From Bacteroidales bacterium (GTDB lineage: Bacteria; Bacteroidota; Bacteroidia; Bacteroidales; VadinHA17): a stretch of 57,066 nt of DNA. The number at the start of each line of letters is the position of its first letter. Positions within the stretch are counted from its first letter, which is position 1. Shown here one piece after another: positions 6,970-51,760 of this stretch. The notes beneath the pieces were generated by a model. It made no database searches. It was not told where the DNA came from and saw nothing but the letters and a program-made list of their open reading frames with translations. Where the stretch lies: positions 1-57,066 of the forward strand of contig DAOQAX010000001.1 of assembly GCA_035354395.1 (NCBI GenBank). The letters are read 5' to 3'. Both the position numbers and the translations under genes were made by a program.

Positions 6970-8106
6970 CTAAAAATTCTGCCAGACCACTCTCCTGATA
7001 TAATCAGTATAAGAGATGATTATCCTTACCACTTTGTCACTCACATTTGGCATTGAGTAATCACTGACTATCCTGAAGTTCCTGTCCTCACCGCAATTCT
7101 GCAACTCCAGTTGTGCAAGTCCCTGCATTACCCGCTCAGGGTTCAGTCCAACCATCATGACACTTGCCTCTTCCATTGCTTCAGGTCTTTCATGAGCCTC
7201 TCTGATATTAAGTGCCCTGAAGTTCAATATCGAAGATTCTTCAGATATTGTTCCACTGTCACTCAGAACGGCTTTTGAATTTATCTGTAGGGCAAGGTAG
7301 TCGCTAAGCCCCATGGGTTTCAGGAGCCGTACATTCTGATTGAACTGAATGCCTCTTGCTTCAATCATTTTTCGTGTTCGTGGATGAGTACTGACGATAA
7401 CAGGCAAATTGTAAACATCAGTCAGATCATTCAGTATCCTTACAAGGCTGAAGAAATTCTTCTCACTGGCTATATTCTCTTCCCGATGAGCTGATATAAC
7501 AAAGTATTTCCCCTTACTAAGATTGAGTTTTTCAAGAATAGTCGATTTCCTGACCTTGGGCATATAATTGTTCAGGACTTCATACATCGGACTTCCTGTC
7601 TTAATTATCCTGTCAGCACTCAGCCCCTCAGCCAGAAGATATTCGCGTGCTATATCGCTGTATGTAAGGTTAATATCAGAGATATGATCAACAATTTTTC
7701 TGTTTGACTCCTCAGGCACCCGCTGGTCAAAGCACCTGTTGCCCGCTTCCATATGAAAAATCGGGATATGTCTTTTCTTTGCCGCAATGGCACACAGGCA
7801 TGAATTTGTATCTCCGAGCACTAAAAATGCATCGGGTTTTGTCTCATCAAGAACCGCATCAATATTTATTAATATCTGGCCTGCTGTGGAAGTCGCATTT
7901 TGACCGGCAGCATTAAGAAAATAATCAGGCTTTCTAAGATTCAGATCCTCAAAAAACACCTCGTTCAGCTCATAATCATAATTTTGACCTGTATGTACCA
8001 GCACATGATCAATTGCAGGACTTGAATCTAATTTCTGGAGGACACAGGAGAGCCTTATTATCTCTGGCCTGGTGCCTACCACTGTCATAACTTTCAGTTT
8101 ATTCAT
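6970..8106 (-). CDS. fnlC: UDP-N-acetylglucosamine 2-epimerase of the FnlC/CapG type (last step of the UDP-L-FucNAc pathway)
   Basis: MNKLKVMTVVGTRPEIIRLS...HVLVHTGQNYDYELNEVFFEDLNLRKPDYFL closely resembles S. aureus CapG as I recall it. It is adjacent to CapF- and CapE-like genes. The ATG at 8106 is preferred over the track start at 8127. Confidence 0.85.
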   Translation of the reverse strand: MNKLKVMTVVGTRPEIIRLSCVLQKLDSSPAIDHVLVHTGQNYDYELNEVFFEDLNLRKPDYFLNAAGQNATSTAGQILINIDAVLDETKPDAFLVLGDTNSCLCAIAAKKRHIPIFHMEAGNRCFDQRVPEESNRKIVDHISDINLTYSDIAREYLLAEGLSADRIIKTGSPMYEVLNNYMPKVRKSTILEKLNLSKGKYFVISAHREENIASEKNFFSLVRILNDLTDVYNLPVIVSTHPRTRKMIEARGIQFNQNVRLLKPMGLSDYLALQINSKAVLSDSGTISEESSILNFRALNIREAHERPEAMEEASVMMVGLNPERVMQGLAQLELQNCGEDRNFRIVSDYSMPNVSDKVVRIIISYTDYIRRVVWQNF

Positions 8107-8163
8107 TTTAACTTTTATAAAACACAATAAGGGAAAAATTACATTATGGGTGAACAGACTATC

Positions 8164-9303
8164 CTATACTGACTCAAACCATGTATCAGGATCATCTGCA
8201 TTGTACTTTTCATTTATCCAGAAAAAGGTGTAGAGATCTTCATTGCCTGTATTTGTGATATTATGTGTATACCAGACAGGCATATCAACAAACGAAGGTT
8301 CTTCGCCATCCAGTTCAAAGCTCAGTTTTTTATCAGTTCCTATACGGCGGATTTCAATCGTGGCTTTCCCCTTTATCACAGCAAATCTTTCTGCCTTACG
8401 TGTATGGAAATGATTACCTCTGGTAATTCCAGGGTGTGTGGTTGAGAAAGAGACCTGGCCACCGCTGCTCAGTTTTATTACTTCAATAAACGACCCGCGG
8501 TTATCGGTGTTTTTTACAAGATGAAAGGGATAAAATTTACTATGGTCAATATAACAGACAAATGTATTGAAGAGGTTTTTCTGAAACTCATTATCCAGAG
8601 AGGGCATCTCACCTTTCTCAAAGTATTTCTGTTTGAACTCTTCCAGCAAGTTAAGAATTTGCGACACTTTAATCTCGGCTGTATGTGGCACCCTGACCTG
8701 TTCCACCCGGGCTCCGCTGGACTCCCTTTCAGGGTCTTTCCCGATAATACCCAGAATGAATGCAACAAGTTCGCCTACATAAATGAGCTTTAGTTCGCCG
8801 TCTGTATCAATTCTGGGTTGCTCTCCATGTGTCAGCTGATGGCAAAAAGTTGCAACTACAGAATTATAATATGGGTTCCCAAAAGGGCCATATACATTAG
8901 GAATAATAAGGCCTGTGAATCTGGCTTTATTTGCCGATGCCCAGTTCCCGAGCATTTCGCGCCCTTCTCTTTTGGATTTTCCATAGGGATTATCCCGCTC
9001 TTCCTGGGTAGATGAGGAAAACAGGATATGAGGCCTGGACTCTGTGGTTTCACAGGCTGATATAAGCTTTTTTACCAGTTCAATGTTTGTGCTGTAAATC
9101 ACATTGGGGTCGTTATGCCGGTTCATTGCGGCAAGATGGACAATTACATCGCATTGACTGACAAAATTATTCAGCAGCTCCTGCTTGCTGAAAAATCCAT
9201 CTTCGAATGGTATTCGTGTATACTTGTCCGGAAATAATCCCAAAGTGTTAAATAAGTGAGAGCCTACAAATCCTGCCTGTCCGGTAATTCCTACTCTTAA
9301 CAT
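8164..9303 (-). CDS. fnlB: CapF/FnlB-type bifunctional reductase/epimerase (SDR domain + C-terminal cupin)
   Basis: N-terminal GITGQAGFVGSHL Rossmann motif, DNPYGKSK and YNSVVATFC. C-terminal cupin NRGSFIEVIK...GQVSFSTTHPGITRGNHFHTRKAERF...DPDTWF. The order matches remembered CapF motifs. Confidence 0.85.
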   Translation of the reverse strand: MLRVGITGQAGFVGSHLFNTLGLFPDKYTRIPFEDGFFSKQELLNNFVSQCDVIVHLAAMNRHNDPNVIYSTNIELVKKLISACETTESRPHILFSSSTQEERDNPYGKSKREGREMLGNWASANKARFTGLIIPNVYGPFGNPYYNSVVATFCHQLTHGEQPRIDTDGELKLIYVGELVAFILGIIGKDPERESSGARVEQVRVPHTAEIKVSQILNLLEEFKQKYFEKGEMPSLDNEFQKNLFNTFVCYIDHSKFYPFHLVKNTDNRGSFIEVIKLSSGGQVSFSTTHPGITRGNHFHTRKAERFAVIKGKATIEIRRIGTDKKLSFELDGEEPSFVDMPVWYTHNITNTGNEDLYTFFWINEKYNADDPDTWFESV

Positions 9304-9394
9304 GATAAAATTCCACTTTCTTTTAAAATGGCCATTCCGGCCGGTTATACTTTATGACAAATCATTGAGAGATAGAGCAAGGCTGCTCATTCTG

Positions 9395-10402
9395 TCAGAT
9401 GTTTTCCCGTACAATATCAAGCTTGAGCAATAGTTTCTTCATCCCCTCGATATCAAGTCTCTGTGTGTTATTAGAGTGATAATCTTCAATTAAGGAAATT
9501 TCCTGTTGCCCTGAGTTAAAGAATTTATCATAATTAAGGTCCCTGGTATCACATGTTATCCTGAAGTAATCTCCAAGATCCTCGGCACGCGACATCTCCT
9601 CCCTTGTTACAAGTGTTTCGTAGAGCTTTTCACCATGTCTGGTTCCAATTATTTTGATTTTTGTATCAGTATGCAATAGTTCCATCAGGGCCTGAGCCAG
9701 AACGCTCAATGTTGCTGCCGGAGCCTTTTGAACAAACAGGTCTCCGTTGTTGGCATGCTCAAAGGCGTACAAAACAAGATCCACCGCATCCTCAAGTGTC
9801 ATCATGAAACGGGTCATATTAGGATCTGTTATTGTTATCTCCTCCCCTTTCTTTATCTGATCAATCCATAAAGGGATAACCGAACCACGGGAAGCCATAA
9901 CGTTTCCATACCTGGTGCAGGAAATTGTTGTAGGACCATTTATCCCAAGCTGCCTTCCTTTGGCGACAGCAACTTTTTCCATTAAGGCTTTGCTCATTCC
10001 CATTGCATTAATAGGATAGGCAGCTTTGTCTGTGCTTAAAACCACAATATTCTTTACACCATGTACAATAGCAGAATCAAGGACATTTTCCGTTCCTATC
10101 ACATTTGTTTTCACCGCCTGCATGGGGAAAAATTCACAGGAAGGCACCTGCTTCAGAGCTGCTGCACTGAAAATATAATCTACTCCCGGCATAACTCCAT
10201 CCACACTTCGTTTGTCCCTTACATCACCAATATAAAACTTAACCTTGTCGTTTTGTAACTGATGACGCATATCATCCTGCTTTTTCTCATCACGCGAGAA
10301 AATCCTTATTTCCTTTATGTCTGAGTCAAGAAACCTTTTGAGAACTGCGTTGCCAAAGGACCCTGTTCCACCTGTGATTAAAAGTACTTTATCTTTAAAC
10401 AT
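9395..10402 (-). CDS. fnlA: UDP-GlcNAc 4,6-dehydratase/5-epimerase (CapE/FnlA type)
   Basis: MFKDKVLLITGGTGSFGNAVLKRFLDSDIKEIRIFSRDEKKQDD..., LKQVPSCEFFP, STDKAAYPINAMGMSKA, TRYGNVMASRGSVIPL and GTRHGEK. This is near-collinear with CapE as remembered. Confidence 0.9.
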   Translation of the reverse strand: MFKDKVLLITGGTGSFGNAVLKRFLDSDIKEIRIFSRDEKKQDDMRHQLQNDKVKFYIGDVRDKRSVDGVMPGVDYIFSAAALKQVPSCEFFPMQAVKTNVIGTENVLDSAIVHGVKNIVVLSTDKAAYPINAMGMSKALMEKVAVAKGRQLGINGPTTISCTRYGNVMASRGSVIPLWIDQIKKGEEITITDPNMTRFMMTLEDAVDLVLYAFEHANNGDLFVQKAPAATLSVLAQALMELLHTDTKIKIIGTRHGEKLYETLVTREEMSRAEDLGDYFRITCDTRDLNYDKFFNSGQQEISLIEDYHSNNTQRLDIEGMKKLLLKLDIVRENI

Positions 10403-10434
10403 ATCGTTTATTTTAGTCTTAACCAGAAAACCGT

Positions 10435-11652
10435 TTATTTAAAATTTAATTTATCAATGAAGTCAACTATCCGTTTCATTGATGTTTTATATTCAAGTAA
10501 GTTATATGCTTTATTATAAGCACTTTCAGAAATATCTTTAACCTGATTTTCATTTTCAAGCATCCACTTTATCTTTGATGCAATCGATTCAGGATTTTCA
10601 CTTTCAGCCAAAATGATATCAGCACCATCATAAAAGTAGGTTTTTATGTCACCAAAGTCGGTAGATAACACCGGCTTTTTCAATGCCATATATTCACCTA
10701 GTTTTGTTGGGAATCCTGCGCGTGTCTGAATATTGTTAGGTCGTGTTATTGCAAGAATTTTACATTGTTCCAGGTACAATTTCACTTCCTCATAACTAAC
10801 CAGACCGGTAAAAAAGACCCTGTCCGGTATGCCCATTTTTTCACATTCTTCCTTCAGCCTTGGAATCATGCTTTTTCCAAAAGTAGCATCCCCTATTATG
10901 ATTACAGTAATGTGGAACTGATCTTTTAATAAACAGACAGCTTTAAACAAATCCATTAAACCATCTTTTCCTCCGGGTGTGCCGCTATAACCAATTGTGT
11001 ATTTTTCCTCCACTTCAGAAGGAGCCCAGAGGTCAAAATCCGTCAGGTTTGGTTGAACCATTACCCTGGACTTATCGAATCCTTTACCGGTGTATACTTC
11101 CTGCAAAAACTTGCTGAAAACGATTAACCCGTTGGACAGAGTGTTTAAGTAGTTTAAGGTAAAGCTGAAGTTAAACCAATGTATTTTACCAAGTATGCCC
11201 CGGTAATAGACTTTGTCAAAATACTCAGGAACAAAAGTAATCAGTTTGATTCTAAAGAGCTTAGCCGTTGAATACAGGAGCAATGCCTGGAAAAAGTCTA
11301 TATGGTAAACCAAAATTGTTACCCTTTTTCTTTTAAACAGCAGAGGAGGAAGAACAAGGAACAAATGAAGGAAACTCAGGAAATCATCAAGAACCTTCAG
11401 AATGCTGTTCTCAGGCCTTAATGTAAGCCCCATGTGAGAATATTTTACGCCGAAAGAGGTTTCTCCTTTCCTTAATACTTTTTCATTAAAATTTCCAAAT
11501 GCAAAACCCTTTGTCAGATAAACCCGCACGGAATGTCCATGAGATATTACCCCTTTACAAAACAAAGACAGATATGCTGCACCGGCTCCACCAGTAGGGA
11601 AATTTTGTGATGTTACCAGTATATATTCCTGGTTTTTACTACTATTAATCAT
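10435..11652 (-). CDS. GT-B (GT4-like) glycosyltransferase, possibly a WbuB-like L-FucNAc transferase
   Basis: 405 aa with C-terminal GFPTKLGEYMALKKPVLSTDFGD, an E-x7-E-like region. It sits immediately upstream of fnlA, as WbuB-type enzymes do in FucNAc loci. The donor sugar is inference. Confidence 0.65.
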   Translation of the reverse strand: MINSSKNQEYILVTSQNFPTGGAGAAYLSLFCKGVISHGHSVRVYLTKGFAFGNFNEKVLRKGETSFGVKYSHMGLTLRPENSILKVLDDFLSFLHLFLVLPPLLFKRKRVTILVYHIDFFQALLLYSTAKLFRIKLITFVPEYFDKVYYRGILGKIHWFNFSFTLNYLNTLSNGLIVFSKFLQEVYTGKGFDKSRVMVQPNLTDFDLWAPSEVEEKYTIGYSGTPGGKDGLMDLFKAVCLLKDQFHITVIIIGDATFGKSMIPRLKEECEKMGIPDRVFFTGLVSYEEVKLYLEQCKILAITRPNNIQTRAGFPTKLGEYMALKKPVLSTDFGDIKTYFYDGADIILAESENPESIASKIKWMLENENQVKDISESAYNKAYNLLEYKTSMKRIVDFIDKLNFK

Positions 11653-11863
11653 ATTTATTACAGAAATCTTAACTCAATTAATCGTCTTATTCCTGGGTAA
11701 ACATACCATCTGACTCTGGTCCTTTTGTGGTAAAATTAACCTTTCCCACAAAACCGGATTATAAAATTAACAAGAATAAGTTTAGCAACCGCTATAAAAA
11801 AATCTTCTTTTGCTCGCCTGCTTCAGGATTGACGTCGGATGAACCTGTTAAATAAATACCGGA

Positions 11864-13207
11864 TCAAGCATCCTTGTCAATTTTAAGAGAGTTAACAATA
11901 CACTGTCTGAACTCCTCCCGAACAATATTGGCATCTTCGCGGCTTAATGCCAGAGACTTAGCCCTTTCCCCAAGCTCCTTCCTCAGTTCCGGTTTTAAAT
12001 AAAGTTTCAGTATTGCATTTTCGAGTAGCTGATCGTTTCTCTCATTTAATAAATATGCCCATTTGTCTTTTTCTGCATATTTTGATGTAGAGGTATCATT
12101 TGGAGCATATACTAAAACAGGGGTGCCGGATATCATATATTCAGAGATCTTCGTCTGGAATGAATATTTTAGAAACCTGATGCTTTTCTTGTCGAAATCA
12201 ATAGGCAAAACCAGAAGATCTGCCGATGCAAATTTTTTGGGCAATTCAGAATATGGCAATGGCTTTGTCCATATAATGTTGTTATTAAACGGCACCTTTC
12301 CATTAAGATCAGCGCCATCGGGGGATAGTATTTCGAAATTAATATCAGGGTATTTCGATGACATTGAGTTTACGACTCTTGCCACATCAACAACTGAATC
12401 CTTCATCCCTAAACCAATACGGCCGGCATACAACACTTTGAACTTCCCATCACACGACCAGTCATTTTTGCTGTAAGGAAGCCACCTTTCCACATCTATA
12501 GGATTATGAAACGGTGTGAAGTCGCGCTTGTATCTTCTCCTGTATTCCTGGCTCATTGCCTCTCCTATGCTCATAAGCAGGGTTGACCTACCAATCAACT
12601 TTTCCAGTTCTGTTTCAGTTTTTCTTCTCCAGTAAAAATCTAATAATCCGAACTTGCCTGAAATTTTGATCCAGTCATCCATAAAATGCAGTGCAACAGG
12701 TGTTTTTAAAGTTTCAGCGATCTCAGAAACCATCTGAATCGAGTTAAGGGATGCAGGCTGAAAATATATAATATCGGGGTTAAACTCCGATATCCAGTTC
12801 AAAAAGTCCCTGTCAACTTTTGCCTTATAAAGAGGTATCAGGATTCCTAAAAAATGCAATATACTCTGAACAATATTGTAAGTCTTCTTAAATCTGCCGG
12901 GCACTGCCTCAGATTGAGAGCCCTGACCATTTGATTTCTGAAAAACAACGGGGCCGCAATTTATCTTTGGCAAAACAATATTTAAAGGGAACGGATGAAG
13001 TTTTCCATTGTATCCCAGCTGATAATAGTTTTCACAGATTTTTGTATCAGCCTCTGCCAGTATATTAGCAAATGAGGCGAGAGCGATTCTGTCTTTCGGC
13101 CAATTAAGGAATAAATTTGACATTGTTATTCCCCCACCTGATTTATTATTAAATGGCGTTCCCAAAATTAAGACTTTGGGGAAGTACTTTGTGTCTTGTG
13201 CATTCAT
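11864..13207 (-). CDS. Glycosyltransferase (GT-B fold, GT4-like C-terminal half)
   Basis: 447 aa. N-terminal KVLILGTPFNNKSGGGITMSNL and C-terminal FQTKISEYMISGTPVLVYAP, a sugar-nucleotide-binding type motif. Confidence 0.6.
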   Translation of the reverse strand: MNAQDTKYFPKVLILGTPFNNKSGGGITMSNLFLNWPKDRIALASFANILAEADTKICENYYQLGYNGKLHPFPLNIVLPKINCGPVVFQKSNGQGSQSEAVPGRFKKTYNIVQSILHFLGILIPLYKAKVDRDFLNWISEFNPDIIYFQPASLNSIQMVSEIAETLKTPVALHFMDDWIKISGKFGLLDFYWRRKTETELEKLIGRSTLLMSIGEAMSQEYRRRYKRDFTPFHNPIDVERWLPYSKNDWSCDGKFKVLYAGRIGLGMKDSVVDVARVVNSMSSKYPDINFEILSPDGADLNGKVPFNNNIIWTKPLPYSELPKKFASADLLVLPIDFDKKSIRFLKYSFQTKISEYMISGTPVLVYAPNDTSTSKYAEKDKWAYLLNERNDQLLENAILKLYLKPELRKELGERAKSLALSREDANIVREEFRQCIVNSLKIDKDA

Positions 13208-13280
13208 GTATACAAAACCTTTAAATTATTTACCGGCAGAATAAATGGGTAATATGATTTATTTAATACCTGATAAAAAG

Positions 13281-14540
13281 TCAGGAATTCCATTCTTTAT
13301 AGACCTCTTCATCAGTCATATCACGGATTTCTTTATTGAAGCATATTCCGATTGATATCCAGATAATGACATAGCTTAAAATAAACCAGTTAATGGTAAT
13401 TGGATAAGAATATAAGAGGAATAGCAAAATCCATGTGCTTGCTGCTTTGCAGAGCATGTTTTTTGAAGCGAAATAGCCTTTAAAGACAGCTGGCAATGCA
13501 AATAAAGCGAAGAGGAATAAACTGATAATTCCTCCGCGGAAAATAACCTGCAGATATCCTGTTTCAATTGTGTTTCTATAAACGGTGATCCTATAGCCTT
13601 CGTCAATGTTAGGACAATAATAATAGCCATCTATACCTTTCCCGATAATCCAGTCTTTAGGTGACATGTCGTTATAGAATGCCCTTTCAACACCCTTTCT
13701 GGTATCTTCATCCATCCTGGAGTTTAAGTTTCCAAAGAAACCATTCCGCTCAACCGCATAAAACACAGCTGTGCCTCCGACCAATAGGAAGATTGCCATT
13801 GCTGAAAGAACAAATTTGAATAGCTTGTCCTTATTATAAATCAGCTGCATTATAAATGCACTGAGTAGCATTGTTGCAATTACAAAAGACAATCCTCTTC
13901 TTGCCCTGACAATTGTAAAATAGAGAGCCAAAAGCATAACGACCACTGCCATTATGTTAACCTTCTTAGAGTTATAAAGATATGTCAGCAAGATAAAGCC
14001 ACAAGGTATAGCAAGACATAATACCAGCCAATCAACGGCTCCGGTAGCATTTCTGATTCCGGTTACTGCATACATCAACACATCCCACACCCGTATACTG
14101 CCAATTATAAAGAAGAGGCCCGATACTAATATCACTACGATAATTTTCCTGAAATATTTCACTTTAAGGGGGAAGAGGAGAATTAATGGTATCAGGTACA
14201 TGAATAACCCATCGTTGCTGTATACAAGAAGCCTTTTAATAAACTCAAAATTCAGATTAAACCCGTTGCATATGATAACAAAATACCATAACAAAGTCAT
14301 TATCAGAACAGACTTTACATATGGATTTACAGTTCTCCAGCTTATGAGTTTGAAAGACGCCGACGCAAATATTACCATACCCACTAACTGGATAACCTGT
14401 AATGTATATACAAACCACTGCGTCTTTGAAGGAAAAACAAATGCAATTGAATATAGACAAAACCCAAGCCAGAAAAAATTCAATGGGGAACTTTCCGGAT
14501 TATCAGTTATTGTTGTCGTATCGTTGCTCATATTAATCAA
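13281..14540 (-). CDS. wzy: O-antigen ligase / Wzy_C-family polytopic membrane protein (putative polymerase)
   Basis: 419 aa with about 10-11 predicted helices. It has the basic loop VRARRGLSF typical of the Wzy_C family and lies next to wzx. Confidence 0.6.
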   Translation of the reverse strand: MINMSNDTTTITDNPESSPLNFFWLGFCLYSIAFVFPSKTQWFVYTLQVIQLVGMVIFASASFKLISWRTVNPYVKSVLIMTLLWYFVIICNGFNLNFEFIKRLLVYSNDGLFMYLIPLILLFPLKVKYFRKIIVVILVSGLFFIIGSIRVWDVLMYAVTGIRNATGAVDWLVLCLAIPCGFILLTYLYNSKKVNIMAVVVMLLALYFTIVRARRGLSFVIATMLLSAFIMQLIYNKDKLFKFVLSAMAIFLLVGGTAVFYAVERNGFFGNLNSRMDEDTRKGVERAFYNDMSPKDWIIGKGIDGYYYCPNIDEGYRITVYRNTIETGYLQVIFRGGIISLFLFALFALPAVFKGYFASKNMLCKAASTWILLFLLYSYPITINWFILSYVIIWISIGICFNKEIRDMTDEEVYKEWNS

Positions 14541-14631
14541 GGTTGTTACATGGGAAAATACAAATAACCATTAGTGTCAGGAACAAAGGCAGCATTCAAT
14601 TGCAAAAATTTAAATGATTATACTGCTGACT

Positions 14632-15996
14632 TCATTTGTTCCATAGGCCGGATGCTCTTCCATTTATTATTTTTTTAAATTGATACGTAGCCCATATGAT
14701 ATTGATAATATTGAATAACACGTTGGCATAAATCACGCCACTTACTCCAAATACCTTACATAGCAGGATTGCAGCAGGTATATATAAGATTATGCTCCAG
14801 ATACCTGCATAAAGTTGCATTTGAATTTTCCCTACCCCGTTAAGGAACTGAGAGTAAAGTATAAAATATGAATAAGTGATTACATATAATGCTAAAGAGA
14901 GCGAGATGGTGAATGGCACTTTTATCTGTGAGCCTACCCAGAGGCGGAAAACGAAATTTGCCAGAACTAACATAGCAATAGCTCCCAGGCATAACAACAT
15001 CCAGTATTTTCTCAGCTTATTCATAACATCGCGGATCCAGTCAACATCCTTAGTTACCCAAGCTTCGGTTATTGCACTCCATATTGGTGAAACCAGGATC
15101 CACCAGAGCATTATCACAACGTTAAAATAGCGATATGCGATATTAAATTTCGTAACATCCTCGGGGCCAAACAACTGAGCAATTATAATATTACTGGCCT
15201 GAATCATAATCAATAGGGAGACCTGTATCACAAAAAATTTAATGCCTAATCCCATTAAATCTTTTGAATATTTAAACTTCACATACTTTATTGAAGGTGC
15301 ATAATCCTTAAACTTCTTCTTATATAGAAAAATGCTGGTGATGAAATAGACAATAACCGGTGATATGCTTATAGCCAAACCTGCCAACAGAAGGCTCCCT
15401 GATGTAGTCTTTGTTAAAATGTAAATAATTATCATCGCCAGAAAGTTGTTCAAAAACCCCAGAAAGGCGGTCTTTTCTGCTTCCTGGTTTGCTGTTAAGA
15501 CAACATTTATTAGCTGGAAAATAATCTGAAGGCAGAAAAAAGTAACAACTATCAACGCCAGCCTGCTTAGTTCTACCGACATATTTTCCGGCGCGTTGAG
15601 AATTTTCACCCAGTTAAGTACAGGATTTATTGCAAAGAACAGGATAAAAATGAACCCAAAAATAACAGCAATAAGAGCATAAGTTGTACTAACGTAAGTC
15701 CTTGCAAGTTCATATTCCTTTTTGGCAACAGCTTCTGCAAATTTGTTCCTCATGCCATTCCCCAATCCAATATCGAAATATGCCAGCCATGCTATTATAG
15801 AGCTTATTGTGATCCATACCCCGTATCTTTCAGTATTCAGATAACCAATGCAGAGGGGTACCAGTAACAATGTTGTTGCAATGCTTAATCCTCTGAATAA
15901 AATTGAGGATACAATTGTTTTCTTGGCTCTTATACTACGGGCATGCCCACTGTTTAAGAAAGAATTGATGGGATTAATTATGTAATTTTTAATCAT
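14632..15996 (-). CDS. wzx: Wzx-type flippase (MOP superfamily polysaccharide biosynthesis protein)
   Basis: 454 aa, about 12-14 hydrophobic helices, basic N-terminus (SGHARSIRAKKT), located in a polysaccharide locus. Confidence 0.75.
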   Translation of the reverse strand: MIKNYIINPINSFLNSGHARSIRAKKTIVSSILFRGLSIATTLLLVPLCIGYLNTERYGVWITISSIIAWLAYFDIGLGNGMRNKFAEAVAKKEYELARTYVSTTYALIAVIFGFIFILFFAINPVLNWVKILNAPENMSVELSRLALIVVTFFCLQIIFQLINVVLTANQEAEKTAFLGFLNNFLAMIIIYILTKTTSGSLLLAGLAISISPVIVYFITSIFLYKKKFKDYAPSIKYVKFKYSKDLMGLGIKFFVIQVSLLIMIQASNIIIAQLFGPEDVTKFNIAYRYFNVVIMLWWILVSPIWSAITEAWVTKDVDWIRDVMNKLRKYWMLLCLGAIAMLVLANFVFRLWVGSQIKVPFTISLSLALYVITYSYFILYSQFLNGVGKIQMQLYAGIWSIILYIPAAILLCKVFGVSGVIYANVLFNIINIIWATYQFKKIINGRASGLWNK

Positions 15997-16102
15997 TTAA
16001 GGATTGAGTATTTCTAATTGAAAACAAATATAGCAATTATGTGGTCTCTGTCAGGTGCCGGAGGAATACAAGAATCAAAGGTCCCTGACAGCCTAAAAAA
16101 AA

Positions 16103-21858: not shown

Positions 21859-21862
21859 TGCA

Positions 21863-25014: not shown

Positions 25015-25179
25015 ATCTTCTTTTATTTTGTATTTAATACTCTTGCTTTAACAGATACTCCCTTAATATAACAATTATACTAATTAAATCTCTTTAATTA
25101 CTTATAAAAATCTCTGAGTTAGCAGTGATATTGAATTTAAACAATTGGCTTTGATCATCTGACTATGGTGTAAAAATGG

Positions 25180-26205: not shown

Positions 26206-26427
26206 ATATGAGGTATAAATACTATCTGCTCTTTTCGCTTCGGGATTGAGCTTATTTAACATTCCTAAAAGAAACACGCAGCCAATAATTCAATTTAGAA
26301 AACCCGTGCTTTTTTTTAGCCATAATAATTTGTTTATAAAAAGGATATTAAAAAACCGGGCTGTAATCCGGATACTAAAAATCAGATTTCTTCACTCTAA
26401 ATTTAAAATTATGAGTATAATCTCATT

Positions 26428-45071: not shown

Positions 45072-45220
45072 ATTGTGGTGAGTTAATCTGAAAATTTAAA
45101 CGATCGCTGCTTTGCGATTTACATCAACTAAATATAAAAAATAAACTTAATTATGTGTCAATAAAGTAGTCGGTTTGAGACTAAAATCTGTTATTCCCGA
45201 ACCATAAAAAAATCAAAGTT

Positions 45221-45991
45221 TTATTGAGCGCTATATCCGCCATCAATGACTAAGCTCGACCCTGTCACCCATTTTGAAGCATCTGACAGTAAATAGACAG
45301 CGGCAAGGGCCACATCATCAGGATCTCCTATACCCAGGGGGTGCATCCTGGTTATTTCCTGAACTCGTTCATCCGAATATTTCGAGAACATCTTTTCAAT
45401 TAATGGAGTATTACATACTGCAGGCAGGATTGTATTAACCCTGATACCTGAAGGTGATAGTTCAAGTGCCATTGCTTTTGCCCCGCTGATAAGGGCACCT
45501 TTTGAACTGCAATATCCAATTTTCCCTACCTGACCAACCATGCCCATGACAGAAGCGATGAAAACCACAGACGCTTTATTATTTAACCCGCTTTTCCTTA
45601 TCAACTGCCGGCTCACTTCAAAACCTGCAATAACGTTTGTATTAAAAAGCATCTGGTAATCCTTTGGTTTCATCATATAAGCGGGCAGAGTCAGTTCATA
45701 TCCCATTGAAGAAATGAAGCCATCAATTTTCCCATATTTCTGAAGGGCATCTGCGACCATCTTCTCAACGACATCAAACTCGCACAGGTCACCAATATAT
45801 TTGCTGTGATCACCAGGCTTGAGCATCTCATATGTCTCCTGCAGCCGGTTTTCATCACGGCCTGAAATAAGCAGTGATGCTCCTGACATACTGCACCTGA
45901 CAGCACACTGTCTTCCTATGCCCGAAGAGGCTCCGGTTATGATGATTTTCTTCCCCGACAGGGAAAAAGGGCTCTCAGAAACAGATGTCAT
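45221..45991 (-). CDS. Short-chain dehydrogenase/reductase (FabG-like ketoreductase)
   Basis: 256 aa with ITGASSGIGRQ (TGxxxGIG) and catalytic YCSSKGAL (YxxxK). The start lies 1 nt after the upstream KASIII stop. Confidence 0.85.
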   Translation of the reverse strand: MTSVSESPFSLSGKKIIITGASSGIGRQCAVRCSMSGASLLISGRDENRLQETYEMLKPGDHSKYIGDLCEFDVVEKMVADALQKYGKIDGFISSMGYELTLPAYMMKPKDYQMLFNTNVIAGFEVSRQLIRKSGLNNKASVVFIASVMGMVGQVGKIGYCSSKGALISGAKAMALELSPSGIRVNTILPAVCNTPLIEKMFSKYSDERVQEITRMHPLGIGDPDDVALAAVYLLSDASKWVTGSSLVIDGGYSAQ

Positions 45992-45992
45992 T

Positions 45993-47051
45993 TTATATTG
46001 TTATTACAGGAAGTATTTTACAATCATTAAGATCCAGCAACATTGATCCCCATGAAAGGCCAACCCCAAAACCTGACAAAACCAATCTTGTTCTTCCTGC
46101 CCGCAGTTTATTTTCTGCGTCAACTATTGTCAAAGGGATACTCGCTGAACTCGTATTCCCATAAGATGACAACGAAAGCGGATACTTTTCAGCGGGAATT
46201 TTAAGTTTTCGTGCCAGATAGTCAACCATAAATTTGTTTGCCTGATGAAAGAAGAAAAGGTCAATGTCTTCAACAGTGGCATTTGCAGCATCAAGGAGGC
46301 CAATAATATCCTTTGGTATCTCTCTTAAGGTAAAGTTAAAGATTTCGGGGCCATCCATAAATATATTTTCCTTTGAACGCAGGTTTTTGTCAGGGCCCTC
46401 TGTCACTTTTACAGTAAACTCAGAAGAAGGAAGCCTGTACCCCCCGCCCTCAATGATAAGCGATTTTGCTCCCGAACCATCAGAGCTTAAGGAACAATAC
46501 ACCGGGCTCGCAGAACTGTCTTTTTCAATGAGTGTCGCACTTCCTGCATCACCAAACAAAAGATTGCTTGACTTATCCTGTGGAGAAACATTTTTGGACG
46601 ATGTGTCACCAACCAGCAAAAGGACTTTGGAAATAGCAGGTTGATTCAGGAAACTAAACGCCATTGAAAGTCCGTAGACATATCCTGAACATCCTAAATT
46701 TATATCAAAAGCAAGTGTTCCTTTTTTTAAGCCGAGCTTATCCTGAAGAATACATGCTGTTGCGGGCAACCGGTAATCCGGTGTTTGTGACACAAAGATA
46801 ACAGCATTAACATCTTCCCTGTTTACGGAAAGTTTCTCAAGCAGTTCGGAGGCAGCTTCGAAACACAGATCTGATGTGCATATCTCAGATGGAGAAACAT
46901 GCCTCTGATAAACGCCTATGCTGTCGATGGTCTTTTTTAGTTCTTCCTCGGTGAAAAGGCTTGATCCGAACTGGCTGTTTTCAATTGTTTTTGCAGGAAC
47001 ACAGGCTGAAATGCCGGCAATTTTAACACCCTCAAATTTAAGATGTCCCAT
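45993..47051 (-). CDS. KAS III (FabH-like) condensing enzyme or acyltransferase, copy 2
   Basis: 352 aa with Cys-His-Asn triad contexts NLGCSGYVYGL, FFHQANKFM and YGNTSSASIP. Confidence 0.85.
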   Translation of the reverse strand: MGHLKFEGVKIAGISACVPAKTIENSQFGSSLFTEEELKKTIDSIGVYQRHVSPSEICTSDLCFEAASELLEKLSVNREDVNAVIFVSQTPDYRLPATACILQDKLGLKKGTLAFDINLGCSGYVYGLSMAFSFLNQPAISKVLLLVGDTSSKNVSPQDKSSNLLFGDAGSATLIEKDSSASPVYCSLSSDGSGAKSLIIEGGGYRLPSSEFTVKVTEGPDKNLRSKENIFMDGPEIFNFTLREIPKDIIGLLDAANATVEDIDLFFFHQANKFMVDYLARKLKIPAEKYPLSLSSYGNTSSASIPLTIVDAENKLRAGRTRLVLSGFGVGLSWGSMLLDLNDCKILPVITI

Positions 47052-47055
47052 ATTG

Positions 47056-47277
47056 TTATTGTAAGTTTTCCGGGCCTATCAGGCCTATTAAATCACTAAT
47101 CTTGTTAATATTCTTCAGGTCAGCTGTCTTTACCTGTTTATTAAAATGTTCATCAATAAAGGCCATCACTGCAAGAGTTGTTAAAGACGTCAGCTGTACC
47201 GGGGTGTTTTCATTAACTTCACTGGCTTCAATCATTAAAACTTCCTTTATGTCAGAATAAAAATCTACTTTCTTCAT
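47056..47277 (-). CDS. Stand-alone acyl carrier protein
   Basis: 73 aa and acidic. Candidate phosphopantetheine Ser in VQLTSLTTLAVMAFIDEHF. It sits between two KASIII genes with 4- and 39-nt gaps. Confidence 0.65.
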   Translation of the reverse strand: MKKVDFYSDIKEVLMIEASEVNENTPVQLTSLTTLAVMAFIDEHFNKQVKTADLKNINKISDLIGLIGPENLQ

Positions 47278-47316
47278 AGCATCTATCTACTTTAAATAAT
47301 TTGTATACAGTATTTG

Positions 47317-48315
47317 TTAAATTTCAATTATAGTTGCCCCCCAGGAATATCCTACTCCAAAGCCGACAATCAATACTTTGTCGCCAGGTTTAATTCTTTT
47401 GGACGAAATGGACTCCTTTAAAGCAATAGGGATTGTAGAGGAAACCGTATTCCCGGTCTCTTTCATGTCCTGGTAAAATTTTTCATCAGGAAATTTCAGC
47501 TTCCTCTTCAGGTAATCAAGCATGTATTTATTTGCCTGGTGGAAAATTATATAATCGACTTCATCGATACTTAAATTATTTTTCTTCAGTACCGAATCAA
47601 CAAGATGAGGAACTCTTTCCAGGGTAAAGTTAAATATCCCGGGTCCATCCATGAATAAATAATTATCATTTAAAACATTTCCTGCACTATCGTACCGGTC
47701 TGCCTCTTCAGGATCGGGTCGGTTTCTAAGCCCTCCCCTACGGACTATCAGGTTATCTTTTCCTGAACCATCAGTGCCAAGCTCAAAGCCAAAAATATGT
47801 TCCTTTCCCGCGTATGAAATTATTGTAGCCGCGGAACCATCTCCGAAAATACTTCTGTTTGATTTATCCTTAGGATGTATATGCTTTGAATATGTTTCTG
47901 CTGTTACAAGCAGGATGTTTTTACATATTTCGCTGTTTATCAATCCTTTTGCCAGAGCCAGGCCATAAATAAAGCCCGAACATCCCTGATTTATATCCAG
48001 TGCTCCGATATTTGTCCTTAGCTTCAACTTATCCTGTAATATACAGGAGGTTGTTGGAAGGAAATAGTCCGGGCTCTGGGTGCACAGTATTATAAAATCA
48101 ATGGATGAAGGATCAAATTCAGCTAATACCTTACTTGCAGATGCATATGCAAGATCTAGCGCAGTCTCATTATCCCCTGTAATGTGACGACGTTCAATGC
48201 CTATCTTTTCATTTATCTTGTTTGCATCCCACTCCGGAAACTCATTTGACAACTGAATGTTATCCAGAATTTTGTCGGGAAGATAATATCCTATTCCAGA
48301 AATTTTTGCGCCCAT
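47317..48315 (-). CDS. KAS III (FabH-like) condensing enzyme, copy 1
   Basis: 332 aa with triad contexts NQGCSGFIYGL, FHQANKYM and TGNTVSSTIP. Confidence 0.85.
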   Translation of the reverse strand: MGAKISGIGYYLPDKILDNIQLSNEFPEWDANKINEKIGIERRHITGDNETALDLAYASASKVLAEFDPSSIDFIILCTQSPDYFLPTTSCILQDKLKLRTNIGALDINQGCSGFIYGLALAKGLINSEICKNILLVTAETYSKHIHPKDKSNRSIFGDGSAATIISYAGKEHIFGFELGTDGSGKDNLIVRRGGLRNRPDPEEADRYDSAGNVLNDNYLFMDGPGIFNFTLERVPHLVDSVLKKNNLSIDEVDYIIFHQANKYMLDYLKRKLKFPDEKFYQDMKETGNTVSSTIPIALKESISSKRIKPGDKVLIVGFGVGYSWGATIIEI

Positions 48316-48544: not shown

Positions 48545-51500
48545 TCAGAATCTTCGTTTTTGAAAGTCGACATTCTTCCTCATTTTGATTTTATCCTCAA
48601 TGTTATTATCGCTTTCTATCCTGTCATTTTTGTTAATCAGGCCGGAAATAAATTCACTCTGTCCCTTAATATTAGGGTATTCAAAGACAGTAATTGTGCT
48701 GAATATTATGTTAAACTCTTTTGAGATCAATGTTGCAAGGTTTATGGCAAGAAGTGAATTGCCTCCACTTTCAAAGAAGTTATCGTTGATACTTATGCTT
48801 TCAACCTTAAGGCACTCCTTCCATAACCCGGATAGTGATTTCTCTATACTGTTTGCAGGAAGTACAATCTCATCTGCAGAGCTCTTTCGTTCGGGTTTGG
48901 GCAGGGCCTTCCGGTCTAACTTCCCACTGGTTGTCAGCGGGAGGTGGTCAATGAAGATGAAAAATGAAGGCACCATATAATCCTGAAGCTTTGAGGTCAG
49001 GAATCTTCGCATCTCATCTATATCCGTTTTAGCGCCAGGTTTAAGGCAGGTATAAGCTACCAGGGATTTTGTGTCAGAATTTTCGGTTACTATCACCGCG
49101 CAGTTTGTGACATCGGGGTGTTTATGAATCTGTGACTCAATATCGCCCAATTCGATTCTGAATCCCCTGATCTTCACCTGGTTGTCTATTCTTCCTATAT
49201 AATCTATCTCACCTTCTTTGGTCAGCTTTACCAGGTCGCCGGTGCGATAAGCTCTGACACTCTTCTCTTTTGAAATTTTAAAATCGAAGAATCTTTCAGC
49301 TGTCAGTTCGGGGTGATTCATATATCCTCTTGCGAGATTTACCCCGGTGATCAATAATTCACCCGGGATACCTACCGGTTGAATTTTCATCTTGCTGTTG
49401 ACAACAAATAATTTTGTGTTATCAATAGGCTTTCCGATATATACCTGTTTGATATTGTCTGCCGGGCAATTATAAAAAGAAACATCCACTGTGGCTTCTG
49501 TTGGTCCATAGAGGTTTATTATATCAGGCAGCTTTATCTCACTTCTCATTTCATTGAACTCTTCAACAACCTTCAGCGGCAATGCCTCTCCGCTCATAAA
49601 TATCCTCCTCAGGCCGGTAAGCTTTGAGAACATGTTTCTCGATTTCACCATTCCCTGGAATGCAATGAACATTGACGGCACAAAATGAATTGTTGTAACG
49701 CGGTATTTTTCAATATGCTGAATTATTGTTTCAGGGCTCTTTTCTCCCCCAGGAGGTAAAAGAAGCAGCCTGGCACCATAAAATGACCACCAGAATAATT
49801 CCCAGACTGACACATCAAATGTGGTGGGTGTTTTCTGAATAAGTGTGTCAGACTGATCAATAGGATAAGCCTTTTGCATCCAGCCAAGCCTGTTTAGTAC
49901 AGAGTGATGTTCAATCATTACGCCTTTAGGCACTCCGGTTGATCCAGAGGTATAAATTATATACGCTTTGTTTCTTGATGTAACTTTTGTAGCTGGTTTT
50001 GAGATGTTATCAGAAAGAGGTGTTTTTAAGATGTCTTCAATGAACAAAAGAGGAGTTCCGTCTGGTATATTCACTGATGAACTCTTTGTTGTGAGGATCA
50101 GTTTAGGGTTGGCATCTCCGATAATTGTCTTCAGTCGTTCTGAAGGAGTATCGGGGTTTAGAGGCAGGTAAGCTGCTCCGGCCTTCAGTACACCAAAAAT
50201 ACCTATCATCATCTCAGCCGACCGCTCAAGACATGTGCAGACCACATCCTCAACTTCAATTCCATCCTTAATCAACCGGTTGGCAGTACGGTTGGCATGT
50301 TCGTCGAGCTCCCTGTATGTCAATGATTGATCGTTAAATAAAAGAGCATCAGAGTGCGGTGTCTTTTGAACCTGTTGCTCAAACTTCTCATGAATGCACA
50401 GGCTCTCTTCATAAGCAGCATTTGTGTCATTCAGTTCATTGATGAAAGCCAGGTCCCCATCAGGAGCGATATCCATATCCATTATTGTATGATCCGGCTC
50501 AGTCATCATTGACTTTAATATCGTCTTATATATTCCCCAGATACTTTCTGCCATCTCCCTGTTAAAAAGATCTGAGGAATATTCAAGGTAAACATGATAC
50601 TTACCGCTTATCTCCCACAAAGAAAAGAAGAGATCCAGCTGTGCCCCGTCCCGTTCAATAAACTGTGCATTCACCTCAGCCCCCTCAAGGTCAAGATGGA
50701 CGCCTGGGTCAAAGGTAAATCCAGCCTGAAACAACCCGCTCCCATCGCCAGGACCAAGAAGGGAATTAAGCAACAGATAAGGAACTTCTTCCTTCCGGTC
50801 AACCTTAAACATCGATGAAAGAATCTGCTTCATCAGACCCGTGCCTGTCAAATCATCAGATAACCGGACAGGCAATGGCAATATATTTACAAAGCATCCA
50901 AATGTGTTCCTGAATTCCGTTTTCCTTCTGTTCCTGAACGGTACGCCAATGTTTATCTCTGATTTGTTTGTGAGTTTATTAAGAAGAACGGCATATGCAC
51001 TTAATAAAACAATGAAATCATTAACTGCATTCTTTTCCGCAAACTGAGATATCTCTGCCACCGGAAATTCATCAAGCACCAAATGAATTCTTTTGCCTGC
51101 ATCACTGCTCACTTTTGAGCGACCGGTTGTGTTTGCAAACTCAAGCTTTTCAGGCTTTGACGGAATAAAATTTCTCCACTCTTCAAGCTTTTTCTGTGCG
51201 TTCTCGGTTGTTTGCCAGTCGCGCAGCCAGTCGGAGTACTCAAAATAGTTATTTGCAAGCAGCTCCGCATCAGGCTCTTGTTTCAGGTAATACGATTTAT
51301 ACAGCGCAGACAGCTCTTTGAAAAAATTCCCTGCCGTAACAAGGTCAAATATTATATGATGGAAGACAAGAACCAGAACAGTTTCATTACTATATTCAAA
51401 TACTCCTGCTCTGAAATATGGCCAGCAACCAATATCAAATGGTCTGTGAATCAACTCATATACTTCACATGATAACGGATCACTGACAAAAGAGGTATCA

Positions 51501-51760
51501 ACTTTTGTTATCTCTGTCTTGATTTTACATTCCTCAGGATCTTTCACATACTGAAATACTTTACCACCGTCTTCTGTAAAAATGGTACGCAACATGTCAT
51601 ACCTCGAAACAATAGTATTAATTGCATTGTTAAATGTATCAATACAAAAATCTCCCTTTATTATTGCCATATAGGGAAGGTTATAGGCAGTAGTATCAGG
51701 GTAAAGTTTCTGTAGAACCCAGAATTGTTGTTGAATTTGAGAAATTTCGCATTTTTTCAT
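48545..51760 (-). CDS. Single-module NRPS, C-A-T, A domain with a Ser code (NRPS-A)
   Basis: 1071 aa. The C domain starts at residue 1 (HHIIFDLV at 134-141). A core AYIIYTSGSTGVPKGV (599-614). T FFESGGNSLLAI (Ser1002). No release domain. Confidence 0.95.
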   Translation of the reverse strand: MKKCEISQIQQQFWVLQKLYPDTTAYNLPYMAIIKGDFCIDTFNNAINTIVSRYDMLRTIFTEDGGKVFQYVKDPEECKIKTEITKVDTSFVSDPLSCEVYELIHRPFDIGCWPYFRAGVFEYSNETVLVLVFHHIIFDLVTAGNFFKELSALYKSYYLKQEPDAELLANNYFEYSDWLRDWQTTENAQKKLEEWRNFIPSKPEKLEFANTTGRSKVSSDAGKRIHLVLDEFPVAEISQFAEKNAVNDFIVLLSAYAVLLNKLTNKSEINIGVPFRNRRKTEFRNTFGCFVNILPLPVRLSDDLTGTGLMKQILSSMFKVDRKEEVPYLLLNSLLGPGDGSGLFQAGFTFDPGVHLDLEGAEVNAQFIERDGAQLDLFFSLWEISGKYHVYLEYSSDLFNREMAESIWGIYKTILKSMMTEPDHTIMDMDIAPDGDLAFINELNDTNAAYEESLCIHEKFEQQVQKTPHSDALLFNDQSLTYRELDEHANRTANRLIKDGIEVEDVVCTCLERSAEMMIGIFGVLKAGAAYLPLNPDTPSERLKTIIGDANPKLILTTKSSSVNIPDGTPLLFIEDILKTPLSDNISKPATKVTSRNKAYIIYTSGSTGVPKGVMIEHHSVLNRLGWMQKAYPIDQSDTLIQKTPTTFDVSVWELFWWSFYGARLLLLPPGGEKSPETIIQHIEKYRVTTIHFVPSMFIAFQGMVKSRNMFSKLTGLRRIFMSGEALPLKVVEEFNEMRSEIKLPDIINLYGPTEATVDVSFYNCPADNIKQVYIGKPIDNTKLFVVNSKMKIQPVGIPGELLITGVNLARGYMNHPELTAERFFDFKISKEKSVRAYRTGDLVKLTKEGEIDYIGRIDNQVKIRGFRIELGDIESQIHKHPDVTNCAVIVTENSDTKSLVAYTCLKPGAKTDIDEMRRFLTSKLQDYMVPSFFIFIDHLPLTTSGKLDRKALPKPERKSSADEIVLPANSIEKSLSGLWKECLKVESISINDNFFESGGNSLLAINLATLISKEFNIIFSTITVFEYPNIKGQSEFISGLINKNDRIESDNNIEDKIKMRKNVDFQKRRF

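Follow-up and report, generated by a model that had tools for sequence, protein, structure and literature searches.

Positions 6970-51760 of contig DAOQAX010000001.1 (assembly GCA_035354395.1, a Bacteroidales bacterium of the VadinHA17 lineage), analysed here within a window of 57,066 nt, hold an array of 24 consecutive minus-strand genes, which starts with a nonribosomal peptide synthetase (NRPS)/polyketide synthase (PKS) assembly line and continues with genes of a Wzx/Wzy-type polysaccharide pathway. At the boundary of the two blocks lie the genes for a tandem-GNAT protein and a CE4 deacetylase. The balance tips slightly towards the array being one unit for a surface polysaccharide or exopolysaccharide (EPS) whose amino sugar bears an N-linked polyketide-peptide chain, and the anatomy of the locus points to N-acyl decoration of an amino sugar, instead of priming, capping or anchoring. 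A more specific proposal, to which we give rather less than even credence, is that the tandem-GNAT family represents an unrecognised class of chain-release enzymes. These would transfer the chain from the terminal thiolation (T) domain of NRPS/PKS lines devoid of a thioesterase (TE) to a CE4-deacetylated amino sugar of a Wzx/Wzy unit, and the product would be a polysaccharide with a non-ribosomal peptide-polyketide on each modified sugar. What would be new is the extension of carrier-protein-dependent N-acylation of glycan amino sugars to a modular line, with the tandem-GNAT family as coupler; in the open-access literature subset searched, no paper was found on modular NRPS/PKS lines joined to Wzx/Wzy loci by a GNAT and CE4 pair, nor anything relevant on Bacteroidales NRPS-saccharide clusters, Rikenellaceae NRPSs, exosortases combined with FemAB and ACP, or off-loading by GNATs.

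The assembly line and its missing release domain

All genes of the assembly line are on the minus strand. In the direction of transcription, the first specifies NRPS-A (48545-51760, 1071 aa), for which Pfam matches and motifs predicted one condensation (C), one adenylation (A) and one T domain. A cassette of four smaller genes follows, for a FabH-like ketoacyl-acyl carrier protein synthase III (KASIII a, 47317-48315; Pfam, NCBIfam), a 73-aa protein with a weak match to acyl carrier proteins (ACPs) and LTSL at the serine site (47056-47277), a second KASIII-like protein (KASIII b, 45993-47051; Pfam, NCBIfam), and a short-chain dehydrogenase/reductase (SDR) resembling 3-ketoacyl-ACP reductases (45221-45991; Pfam). 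The modular part is completed by a hybrid PKS-NRPS with ketosynthase (KS) and acyltransferase (AT) domains in the order KS-AT-T-C-A-T (38943-45071; Pfam, motifs), and by NRPS-B with three C-A-T modules (29338-38784; Pfam, motifs). Next to it lies a gene for a Sfp/HetI-type phosphopantetheinyl transferase (PPTase, 28573-29334; PF01648 and PF22624, HetI-like in NCBIfam).

The active-site motifs were inspected domain by domain. The KS domain has retained its Cys/His/His residues (TACS/HGT/GHT), and the AT domain is of the malonyl type (GHSIG...HAFH); ketoreductase (KR), DH or ER domains were not detected in the hybrid PKS-NRPS module with Pfam. Four of the five C domains contain HHxxxD, among them the LCL-like C domain of NRPS-A (HHIIFD); in the fifth, the first one of NRPS-B, LHxxxDG takes the place of HHxxxDG. 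GGxS is present in all T domains. Judged from these motifs, the assembly line is complete in its domain architecture and catalytically intact. The specificity codes of the A domains are, in order, DVWHLGLVD (Ser-like), DILQLGMVW (Gly), DMYQLGCVY twice, and DILQLGMVW (Gly, last module); they were read as Stachelhaus codes against a GrsA reference segment, and the Gly and Ser-like calls are provisional. The code DMYQLGCVY, shared by the consecutive A domains 1 and 2 of NRPS-B, fitted no amino acid. Identification of the first C domain of the line as a starter C domain was considered and not supported: in a sequence search of the PDB it matched Txo and PCP-C didomains of the LCL type best, and the starter C domain of RzmA far more weakly.

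The last T domain of NRPS-B covers residues 3079-3140 of 3148, leaving eight residues to the C-terminus. No cis-acting release domain, be it a TE, a reductase (R) or a terminal C domain, was found in NRPS-B, and no thioesterase or reductase domain was detected by Pfam in any open reading frame (ORF) of the window of at least 100 aa.

The GNAT and CE4 pair at the boundary

Downstream of the PPTase gene, on the same strand, are the genes for the tandem-GNAT protein (27450-28460, 336 aa), which belongs to an unnamed family and has a weak match to PF00583, and for the CE4 (NodB-homology) deacetylase (26428-27420; PF01522, NCBIfam) with the metal-binding and catalytic motifs TFDD and HTILH. A signal peptide was predicted in neither protein, so the cytoplasm, which also contains the T domains, can be the site of action of both.

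An AF2 model of the GNAT protein (pLDDT 88.7, pTM 0.88) consists of two GNAT lobes in tandem. In a Foldseek search with this model against the PDB, N-myristoyltransferases were the top matches (E 7e-12, TM-score 0.55-0.60), followed by Eis-like double GNATs. N-myristoyltransferases take a long acyl chain off a pantetheine thioester and attach it to an amine, and the similarity therefore fits the role proposed for the GNAT protein, with TM-scores that are moderate. Sequence-based comparison with the PDB yielded one weak single-domain GNAT match (E 0.003). No NCBIfam model matched at E<=0.01, and ten distant family members did not match TIGR03019 (PEP-CTERM FemAB) at E<=1.

A total of 5.8 billion proteins included 36 close homologues of the GNAT protein, every one of which came from uncultured Bacteroidales or Bacteroidetes. 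In a profile search, 328 cluster representatives of the family were detected among 1.84 billion. Functional names are absent from the family, the few named members being called 'hypothetical protein' or 'GNAT family N-acetyltransferase'; ten sampled clusters contained neither a functional name nor a cultured organism.

Neighbourhoods of the GNAT family in relatives

Loci harbouring family members were searched by profile. The scan of genome contigs yielded only four loci, all in metagenome-assembled genomes (MAGs); the scan of metagenomes was seeded with alignment A1, the broader alignment A2 being too diverse. In all of the about 19 independent loci that were read, the GNAT gene belongs to a glycan locus and has a carrier-protein system as its neighbour. 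These systems range from a lone ACP with KASIII and KR, over an A domain with ACP and a KS-AT-T protein, to multimodular NRPS/PKS lines. A CE4 gene adjoins the GNAT gene in most loci; none was seen next to it in L013, P0030 and L009/L017.

In a close clade, with GNAT proteins 52-59% identical to that of the window, the GNAT gene directly follows a PKS or NRPS gene, at times with a PPTase gene in between. The upstream synthases differ considerably: KS-AT-T in L010 and L020, C-A-T plus KS-AT-T in L019, a methyltransferase (MT)-ACP protein plus C-T-KS-AT-T in L007, L016 and L018, two lines of the C-A-T-KS-AT-T type in the locus of P0009, a 5277-aa NRPS plus KS-AT-T in L015, and AT-T-C-A-T-C-A-T in L011. 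On the 3' side of the GNAT gene, genes for CE4, a beta-helix protein, Wzx, a Wzy-like protein and two GT1 glycosyltransferases are collinear with positions 10435-17716 of the window, with 35-66% identity. The junction of a synthase ending in a T domain, an optional PPTase, GNAT, CE4 and glycan genes thus recurs in more than ten diverged loci with different synthases. Among relatives at this distance whose context was readable, none kept the NRPS and EPS blocks apart.

The recurrence of the junction largely refutes a fortuitous arrangement, in which an EPS locus would have received a mobile NRPS island that has no functional meaning there. Such an insertion could be suggested by the slightly higher G+C content of the NRPS part (0.40-0.43 versus 0.35-0.39) and by glycan genes on either side of the NRPS block, which is bracketed in this way because a second UDP-GlcNAc 2-epimerase gene (52954-54114) lies beyond its end. 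The relatives, at 52-59% protein identity, are not near-clonal, mobile-element genes or repeats were not seen at the borders of the block, and the junctions on both sides of the PPTase gene are tight (3 nt and 112 nt), so that chance insertion is regarded as very improbable.

All 11 synthases encoded directly upstream of GNAT or PPTase genes end in a T domain, with no more than 13 residues left and without any release domain, and no hydrolase was noted in any annotated neighbourhood. Locus L009, from a Rikenellaceae MAG, contains two assembly lines (3098-9775 and 14527-17562), and a separate copy of the GNAT gene comes after each of them (9998-11002 and 17785-18495). The tails of their terminal T domains are identical over the last 60 residues, which looks like a recent duplication of a unit of T domain and GNAT.

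The most diverged GNAT proteins (26-45% identical) are encoded in ordinary Wzx/Wzy or capsule loci beside a minimal carrier system. Locus L013 contains genes for a glycosyltransferase (GT), GNAT, ACP, KR and KASIII, and P0030 a minimal ACP, KR and KASIII system next to GNAT, both without a visible CE4 gene. CE4 is present in the other four: L014 (CE4, GNAT, ACP), L024 (CE4, GNAT, ACP, KASIII, KR, KASIII), L029 (KASIII, KR, KASIII and, further on, Wzx, Wzy, GT, GT, CE4, GNAT, FnlA, FdtA-like, FnlB, FnlC) and L030 (GNAT, CE4, ACP-like, a stand-alone adenylating enzyme and KR, with PPTase and Wzx nearby). The 73-aa ACP-like protein of the window aligns with the 76-aa GNAT-adjacent ACPs of L013, L014 and L024, and KASIII a is 52-55% identical to the GNAT-adjacent KASIII of the glycan-only loci L013, L024 and L029; for the SDR the values are 36-40%. 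By these similarities the KASIII-ACP-KASIII-SDR cassette of the window is the counterpart of the minimal cassettes in glycan-only loci.

These contexts also bear on the possibility that the two blocks specify independent products under common regulation. The assembly line would then make a free, secreted peptide-polyketide, for example a surfactant or a signal, which would come off by hydrolysis or with the help of a trans-acting enzyme encoded elsewhere, and GNAT and CE4 would tailor the polysaccharide with acetyl- or acyl-CoA. GNAT and CE4 proteins are indeed ordinary polysaccharide-tailoring enzymes, the weak Pfam match is to acetyltransferases, biofilm matrix and surfactant genes are often co-expressed, and a type II thioesterase could be encoded outside a window of just 57 kb. 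Nevertheless, separate products appear unlikely in view of GNAT genes that track carrier systems in every locus read, the minimal ACP cassettes of plain glycan loci among them, and that were duplicated along with the assembly line in L009, and of synthases uniformly lacking a release domain. Coupling is favoured over a free lipopeptide on two of these grounds, the absence of TE and R domains and the occurrence of the GNAT family beside minimal ACP cassettes in plain glycan loci. An earlier note on this DNA, made from the sequence alone, had supposed that the NRPS/PKS and Wzx/Wzy blocks work jointly on one glycoconjugate. This supposition gained support from the conserved linkage in relatives, the absent TE and R domains and the contexts of the GNAT family.

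Sequence comparison of the T domains preceding GNAT revealed a shared tail, NFFEIGGDSLLAITV.SKIKSAF.V.LSLRVF.DSP.IKDLAEKV, in KS-AT-T and C-A-T modules alike. It is found in the window (29338-29580) and in L007, L009, L011, L012, L016, L018 and L019. The KS-AT-T lines followed by a PPTase (L010, L015, L020) have a different tail resembling that of PKS ACPs. The GNAT protein may recognise the shared tail as a docking signature.

In L029, the genes for FnlA, an FdtA-like protein, FnlB and FnlC directly follow CE4 and GNAT (9229-14777), and FnlA, FnlB and FnlC are 61-79% identical to the Fnl proteins of the window. This adjacency hints at a sugar of the L-FucNAc pathway as acceptor.

Organization and transcription signals of the array

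The ORF listing agrees with the earlier note in that 24 minus-strand ORFs follow each other without interruption in 6970-51760, the 73-aa ACP-like ORF included. Plus-strand ORFs of at least 100 aa also occur within the array; each is nested in a longer, Pfam-supported minus-strand gene, and they were therefore treated as shadow ORFs. The tight junctions described in the note were confirmed in their coordinates. The gap between the NRPS-B and PPTase genes is 3 nt (29335-29337), those in the KASIII/ACP/SDR cassette are 1 nt (45992) and 4 nt (47052-47055), and the one between the genes for a PaaK-like enzyme and a two-domain oxidoreductase is 4 nt (21859-21862). The overlap near 19702-19721 amounts to 20 nt if the longest ORF is taken; with the start that public gene callers use, it is 11 nt. 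The boundary gaps 28461-28572, 26278-26427 and 25015-25179 have lengths of 112, 150 and 165 nt.

The terminator scan also agreed with the note: no terminator-like site was found in these three boundary gaps, or in any gap of 6970-29500, and a bidirectional intrinsic terminator (6902-6949, both strands), with a 20-bp stem and flanking A and T runs, closes the array, in the space that separates its last gene from the convergent Wzc gene. Of the internal gaps, a single one, 45072-45220 within the NRPS block, contains a terminator-like match, which is weak and has a 5-bp stem (45118-45103); the remaining sites listed by the scan fall within ORFs. No more than two gaps have a minus-strand copy of the Bacteroidetes -7 motif TAnnTTTG, at 16032 (before Wzx) and at 48451 (before the first KASIII gene), which is weak evidence; the gap scan detected none on this strand in the NRPS/EPS boundary gaps. 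A sigma-70 promoter scan was dropped, as its counts equalled the shuffle expectation and the model is unsuited to Bacteroidetes. From the missing terminator and promoter signals, which do not prove a single transcript, we infer that the array is co-transcribed. As to gene content, the note was right about an NRPS/PKS part upstream and Wzx/Wzy genes in the rest; the exosortase, Wza, Wzc and initiating phosphoglycosyltransferase genes lie outside the array. The window matches contig DAONEF010000001.1 of a Bacteroidales MAG (GCA_035402965.1), and its locus was also assembled from several further samples.

Proposed pathway

In the pathway that we propose, KASIII, ACP, KASIII and KR would first make a short hydroxyacyl-ACP starter. 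The modular line would then add one malonyl unit and five amino acids, in the order NRPS-A C-A(Ser-like)-T, KS-AT(malonyl)-T-C-A(Gly)-T and NRPS-B (C-A-T)x3, giving a chain that ends with Gly and stays bound to the last T domain through a thioester. In the cytoplasm, CE4 would strip the N-acetyl group from an amino sugar linked to a nucleotide or to undecaprenyl-PP; candidate sugars made by the locus are L-FucNAc, ManNAc and GlcNAc or derivatives of these. The tandem-GNAT protein would subsequently take the chain off the carrier protein and join it to the freed amine, thereby releasing the assembly line. Glycosyltransferases would complete the decorated unit, Wzx would flip it, the Wzy-like protein would polymerise it, and Wza and Wzc would serve export. 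Such a mechanism would account for the absent release domain, for the constant junction despite varied synthases, for the joint duplication seen in L009, and for the same pair near lone ACPs. With respect to evolution, we infer that the array is an expansion of a simpler, widespread module of CE4, GNAT, ACP and KASIII/KR which N-acylates glycan amino sugars. The chain is probably short and polar, since the starter cassette is similar to one of Flavobacterium psychrophilum that was predicted to make a C6 dihydroxyacyl group; the lipopeptide envisaged in the earlier note is for this reason doubtful.

Several points weigh against this proposal. The structural similarity to N-myristoyltransferases has TM-scores of only 0.55-0.60 at an rmsd of about 7 A, and the donor of the GNAT protein could be acyl-CoA or aminoacyl-tRNA, as with Fem enzymes, rather than a carrier protein. 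CE4 enzymes usually act on polymers or oligomers, and the sugar acceptor is only a candidate. The first C domain appears to be LCL-type rather than starter-type, which leaves the order of the modules uncertain, and a trans-acting thioesterase might be encoded elsewhere in the genome. The argument for co-transcription is drawn solely from absent signals, and the promoter tool has no Bacteroidetes promoter model. All loci are from uncultured MAGs or metagenomes, and adjacency within one lineage could partly mirror shared descent instead of function.

Comparison with known systems

Deacetylation of an amino sugar followed by N-acylation from an acyl carrier protein is known from NodB and NodA (with NodE and NodF) and from LpxC and LpxD. 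NodB is in the same CE4/NodB-homology family as the deacetylase of the window. NodA and LpxD, on the other hand, have unrelated folds, the donors are fatty acyl-ACPs, and the acceptors are a chitooligosaccharide or a UDP-sugar, not Wzx/Wzy units.

Direct off-loading of carrier-bound PKS/NRPS or ACP products onto sugars is carried out by mycobacterial PapA acyltransferases and by BtrH of butirosin synthesis, and such enzymes can stand in for a thioesterase. PapA proteins are similar to condensation domains and form esters on trehalose, and BtrH acts on an aminoglycoside. Mycobacterial glycopeptidolipid (GPL) was rejected as a close model, because it is released reductively and glycosylated later, and no Wzx/Wzy system is involved. 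In contrast to what is proposed for the window, none of the PapA, GPL and BtrH systems feeds a Wzx/Wzy polymer or uses a tandem GNAT.

Decoration of a surface glycopolymer by a stand-alone adenylation enzyme and a carrier protein is represented by DltABCD (D-alanylation of teichoic acid) and AlmEFG (glycine on lipid A of Vibrio cholerae). Locus L030, with A domain, ACP-like protein, GNAT and CE4, looks like a minimal version of this arrangement. The known systems differ in that single amino acids are attached in ester linkage by MBOAT or LpxL-like transferases, and not as an amide to a deacetylated amine by a GNAT.

A cassette similar to that of the window is part of the O-antigen locus of F. 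psychrophilum, a Wzx/Wzy locus with fnl (L-FucNAc) genes, in which wfpC-D-E-F specify KAS, ACP, KAS and KR (Cisar et al. 2019, PMC6519341). Its predicted product is a 3,5-dihydroxyhexanoyl group transferred from ACP to the amine of an amino sugar by a PglD-like transferase (Cisar et al. 2019, PMC6519341). Four corresponding genes are present in the same order at 45221-48315 of the window, as compared by description. The transfer step differs: the Wfp transferase is PglD-like, a left-handed beta-helix, and the amine is provided by the aminotransferase PglE/F, whereas the window has a tandem GNAT and CE4, and neither a hexapeptide transferase nor a sugar aminotransferase was detected in it by Pfam. 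In addition, the ACP-bound chain of the window would be extended further by a six-module PKS/NRPS.

The closest described logic, in the same phylum, is that of the Wbp/Vim pathway of Porphyromonas gingivalis and Tannerella forsythia, in which a CE4 enzyme exposes the amine of a sugar and an N-acyltransferase acylates it. According to that proposal, VimE (CE4) deacetylates a diacetamido uronic acid at C-2, and VimA adds Ser or Gly; WbpS, an AsnB-like protein, makes the uronamide, and VimF is the associated GT (Veith et al. 2020, PMC7468200). Homologues of VimA, VimE and AsnB are encoded beside exosortases in other phyla (PMC7468200). The window contains GNAT, CE4, GT and AsnB genes in this order and, outside the array, an exosortase gene at 2168-3211.

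From this resemblance the locus could be taken to make a Vim-like linking sugar: the GNAT protein, in the manner of VimA or FemX, would put one amino acid on the deacetylated sugar, the exosortase would join PEP-CTERM-type proteins to the amine, and the NRPS/PKS would serve only as aminoacyl donor or make an unrelated product. The set of GNAT, CE4, GT and AsnB plus exosortase in one locus does mirror VimA, VimE, VimF and WbpS and the exosortase-linked homologues (PMC7468200), and the predicted specificities of the last module (Gly) and of the sole A domain of NRPS-A (Ser-like) correspond to the two amino acids of the Vim pathway. However, TIGR03019 matched neither the GNAT protein of the window nor the ten distant members, CE4 failed the model for PEP-CTERM deacetylases, and AsnB scored below the cut-off of TIGR03108. 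The insert of GT and AsnB genes is specific to the window and missing from collinear relatives. Homologues of WbpA and WbpE were not found in the window; from the Wbp enzymes for a 2,3-diacetamido uronic acid (WbpA, B, E, D) and the amidotransferase WbpS, it has only a weak WbpB-like GFO/IDH/MocA domain and the sub-cut-off AsnB, and no UDP-sugar 6-dehydrogenase or aminotransferase is present in the window. Nor was a PEP-CTERM-type substrate protein noticed within the 57 kb. A linking sugar of this kind is accordingly considered improbable.

Under the preferred reading, N-acylation by a polyketide-peptide chain, the donor differs from that of the Vim pathway, a carrier-bound polyketide-peptide being proposed in place of a single amino acid. 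The tandem-GNAT fold leaves room for remote kinship with VimA, the comparison having been made by way of the family model. The Vim linking sugar serves cargo of type IX secretion (T9SS). By analogy, the locus appears to work like the Vim pathway in its logic, rather than as a demonstrated member of it. A further step, in which the attached peptide would act as acceptor for surface proteins joined by the nearby exosortase, comparable to the Vim linking sugar for T9SS cargo, is less likely.

Implications of the proposed coupling

If the proposal is true, a release route would be added to those of NRPS/PKS lines, in which an enzyme of the GNAT fold performs a trans-amidation onto the sugar of a glycan, and assembly lines which seem incomplete for want of a TE would be accounted for. 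A new type of bacterial surface polymer would result, in which a programmable line writes peptide-polyketide side chains on a polysaccharide, with consequences for antigenic diversity, biofilm properties and glyco-engineering. A 'dark' family of at least 328 clusters would gain a function and a testable donor, the carrier protein. The loci would form a graded series, from ACP only, over A domain and ACP and one PKS module, to a multimodular line, and this series would connect secondary metabolism with the Vim pathway and with the N-acylation of O-antigens. The combined product would escape genome-mining tools in which loci of this kind are divided into an 'NRPS' and a 'saccharide' cluster.

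Glycan genes and flanking regions

The genes following CE4 in the array, all on the minus strand, specify a GT4-type glycosyltransferase (25180-26277; weak Pfam matches) and the AsnB-family glutamine amidotransferase (23218-25014), which exceeds the cut-off of TIGR01536 (363.5 versus 267.1) and stays below that of TIGR03108, the model for XrtA/PEP-CTERM, WbpS-like amidotransferases (355.5 versus 816.9). They are followed by genes for an adenylate-forming enzyme similar to PaaK/F390 synthetases (21863-23188; weak NCBIfam), a two-domain oxidoreductase with ADH_zinc_N and GFO/IDH/MocA domains (19702-21858; Pfam, NCBIfam), a 392-aa protein with weak Pfam matches of the GH88/pectate lyase type (18543-19721), and a ManNAc(A) transferase of the WecG/TagA family (17777-18514; Pfam, NCBIfam). 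A right-handed beta-helix protein (16103-17716; Pfam) is conserved directly after CE4 in relatives.

The Wzx-like flippase (14632-15996) has a MatE match of 27.0 bits (cut-off 24.9) and remains below the cut-offs with Polysacc_synt (21.4, cut-off 28.2) and WZX_like (28, cut-off 300); its orthologues in collinear relatives are 47-66% identical and carry PF01943. The candidate for a Wzy-like polymerase (13281-14540) has a weak match to TIGR04370 (25.9 bits, cut-off 40), and its place after Wzx is conserved in relatives. Two GT1-family glycosyltransferases (11864-13207 and 10435-11652; Pfam), collinear in relatives, and FnlA-, FnlB- and FnlC-like proteins for the synthesis of UDP-L-FucNAc (6970-10402; Pfam) complete the array.

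Beyond the terminator, three genes on the plus strand specify an initiating polyprenyl glycosylphosphotransferase (102-1553; TIGR03025, 350.1 bits, cut-off 295.55), Wza (3596-4420; Poly_export and SLBB) and Wzc (4428-6818; tyrosine autokinase TIGR01007, 159.9 bits, cut-off 108). The minus-strand exosortase gene between the first two specifies a divergent protein of 347 aa, with a score of 35.9 against the general exosortase/archaeosortase signature TIGR04178 (cut-off 23) and scores too low for the XrtX, XrtF and XrtY models; some 200 aa extend the protein at its N-terminus, and its tie to the array is one of proximity only.

On the other side, beyond the start of the NRPS block, two plus-strand genes (51947-52951 and 54208-55203) for paralogous, membrane-anchored proteins of about 334 aa flank the second UDP-GlcNAc 2-epimerase gene (minus strand; Pfam), and a minus-strand gene for an OmpA/PKD protein follows (55232-56995). 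The paralogues are 51% identical to each other and possess an N-terminal transmembrane helix, a weakly CBM60-like middle part and a hydrophobic C-terminal tail (...YYWIILLFY). They matched no family, and the AF2 model was unusable (pLDDT 46.9). Homologues with 40-46% identity are encoded divergently from the PKS/NRPS start in L007 (774-1778), L009 (530-1591) and L016 (166-1176). An OmpA/PKD/PD40 protein 40% identical to that of the window is encoded upstream of the PKS/NRPS in L019 (831-2996) as well, and the glycan block of L010 includes a gene (8409-10523) whose product carries a C-terminal sorting domain of the T9SS (Por_Secre_tail).

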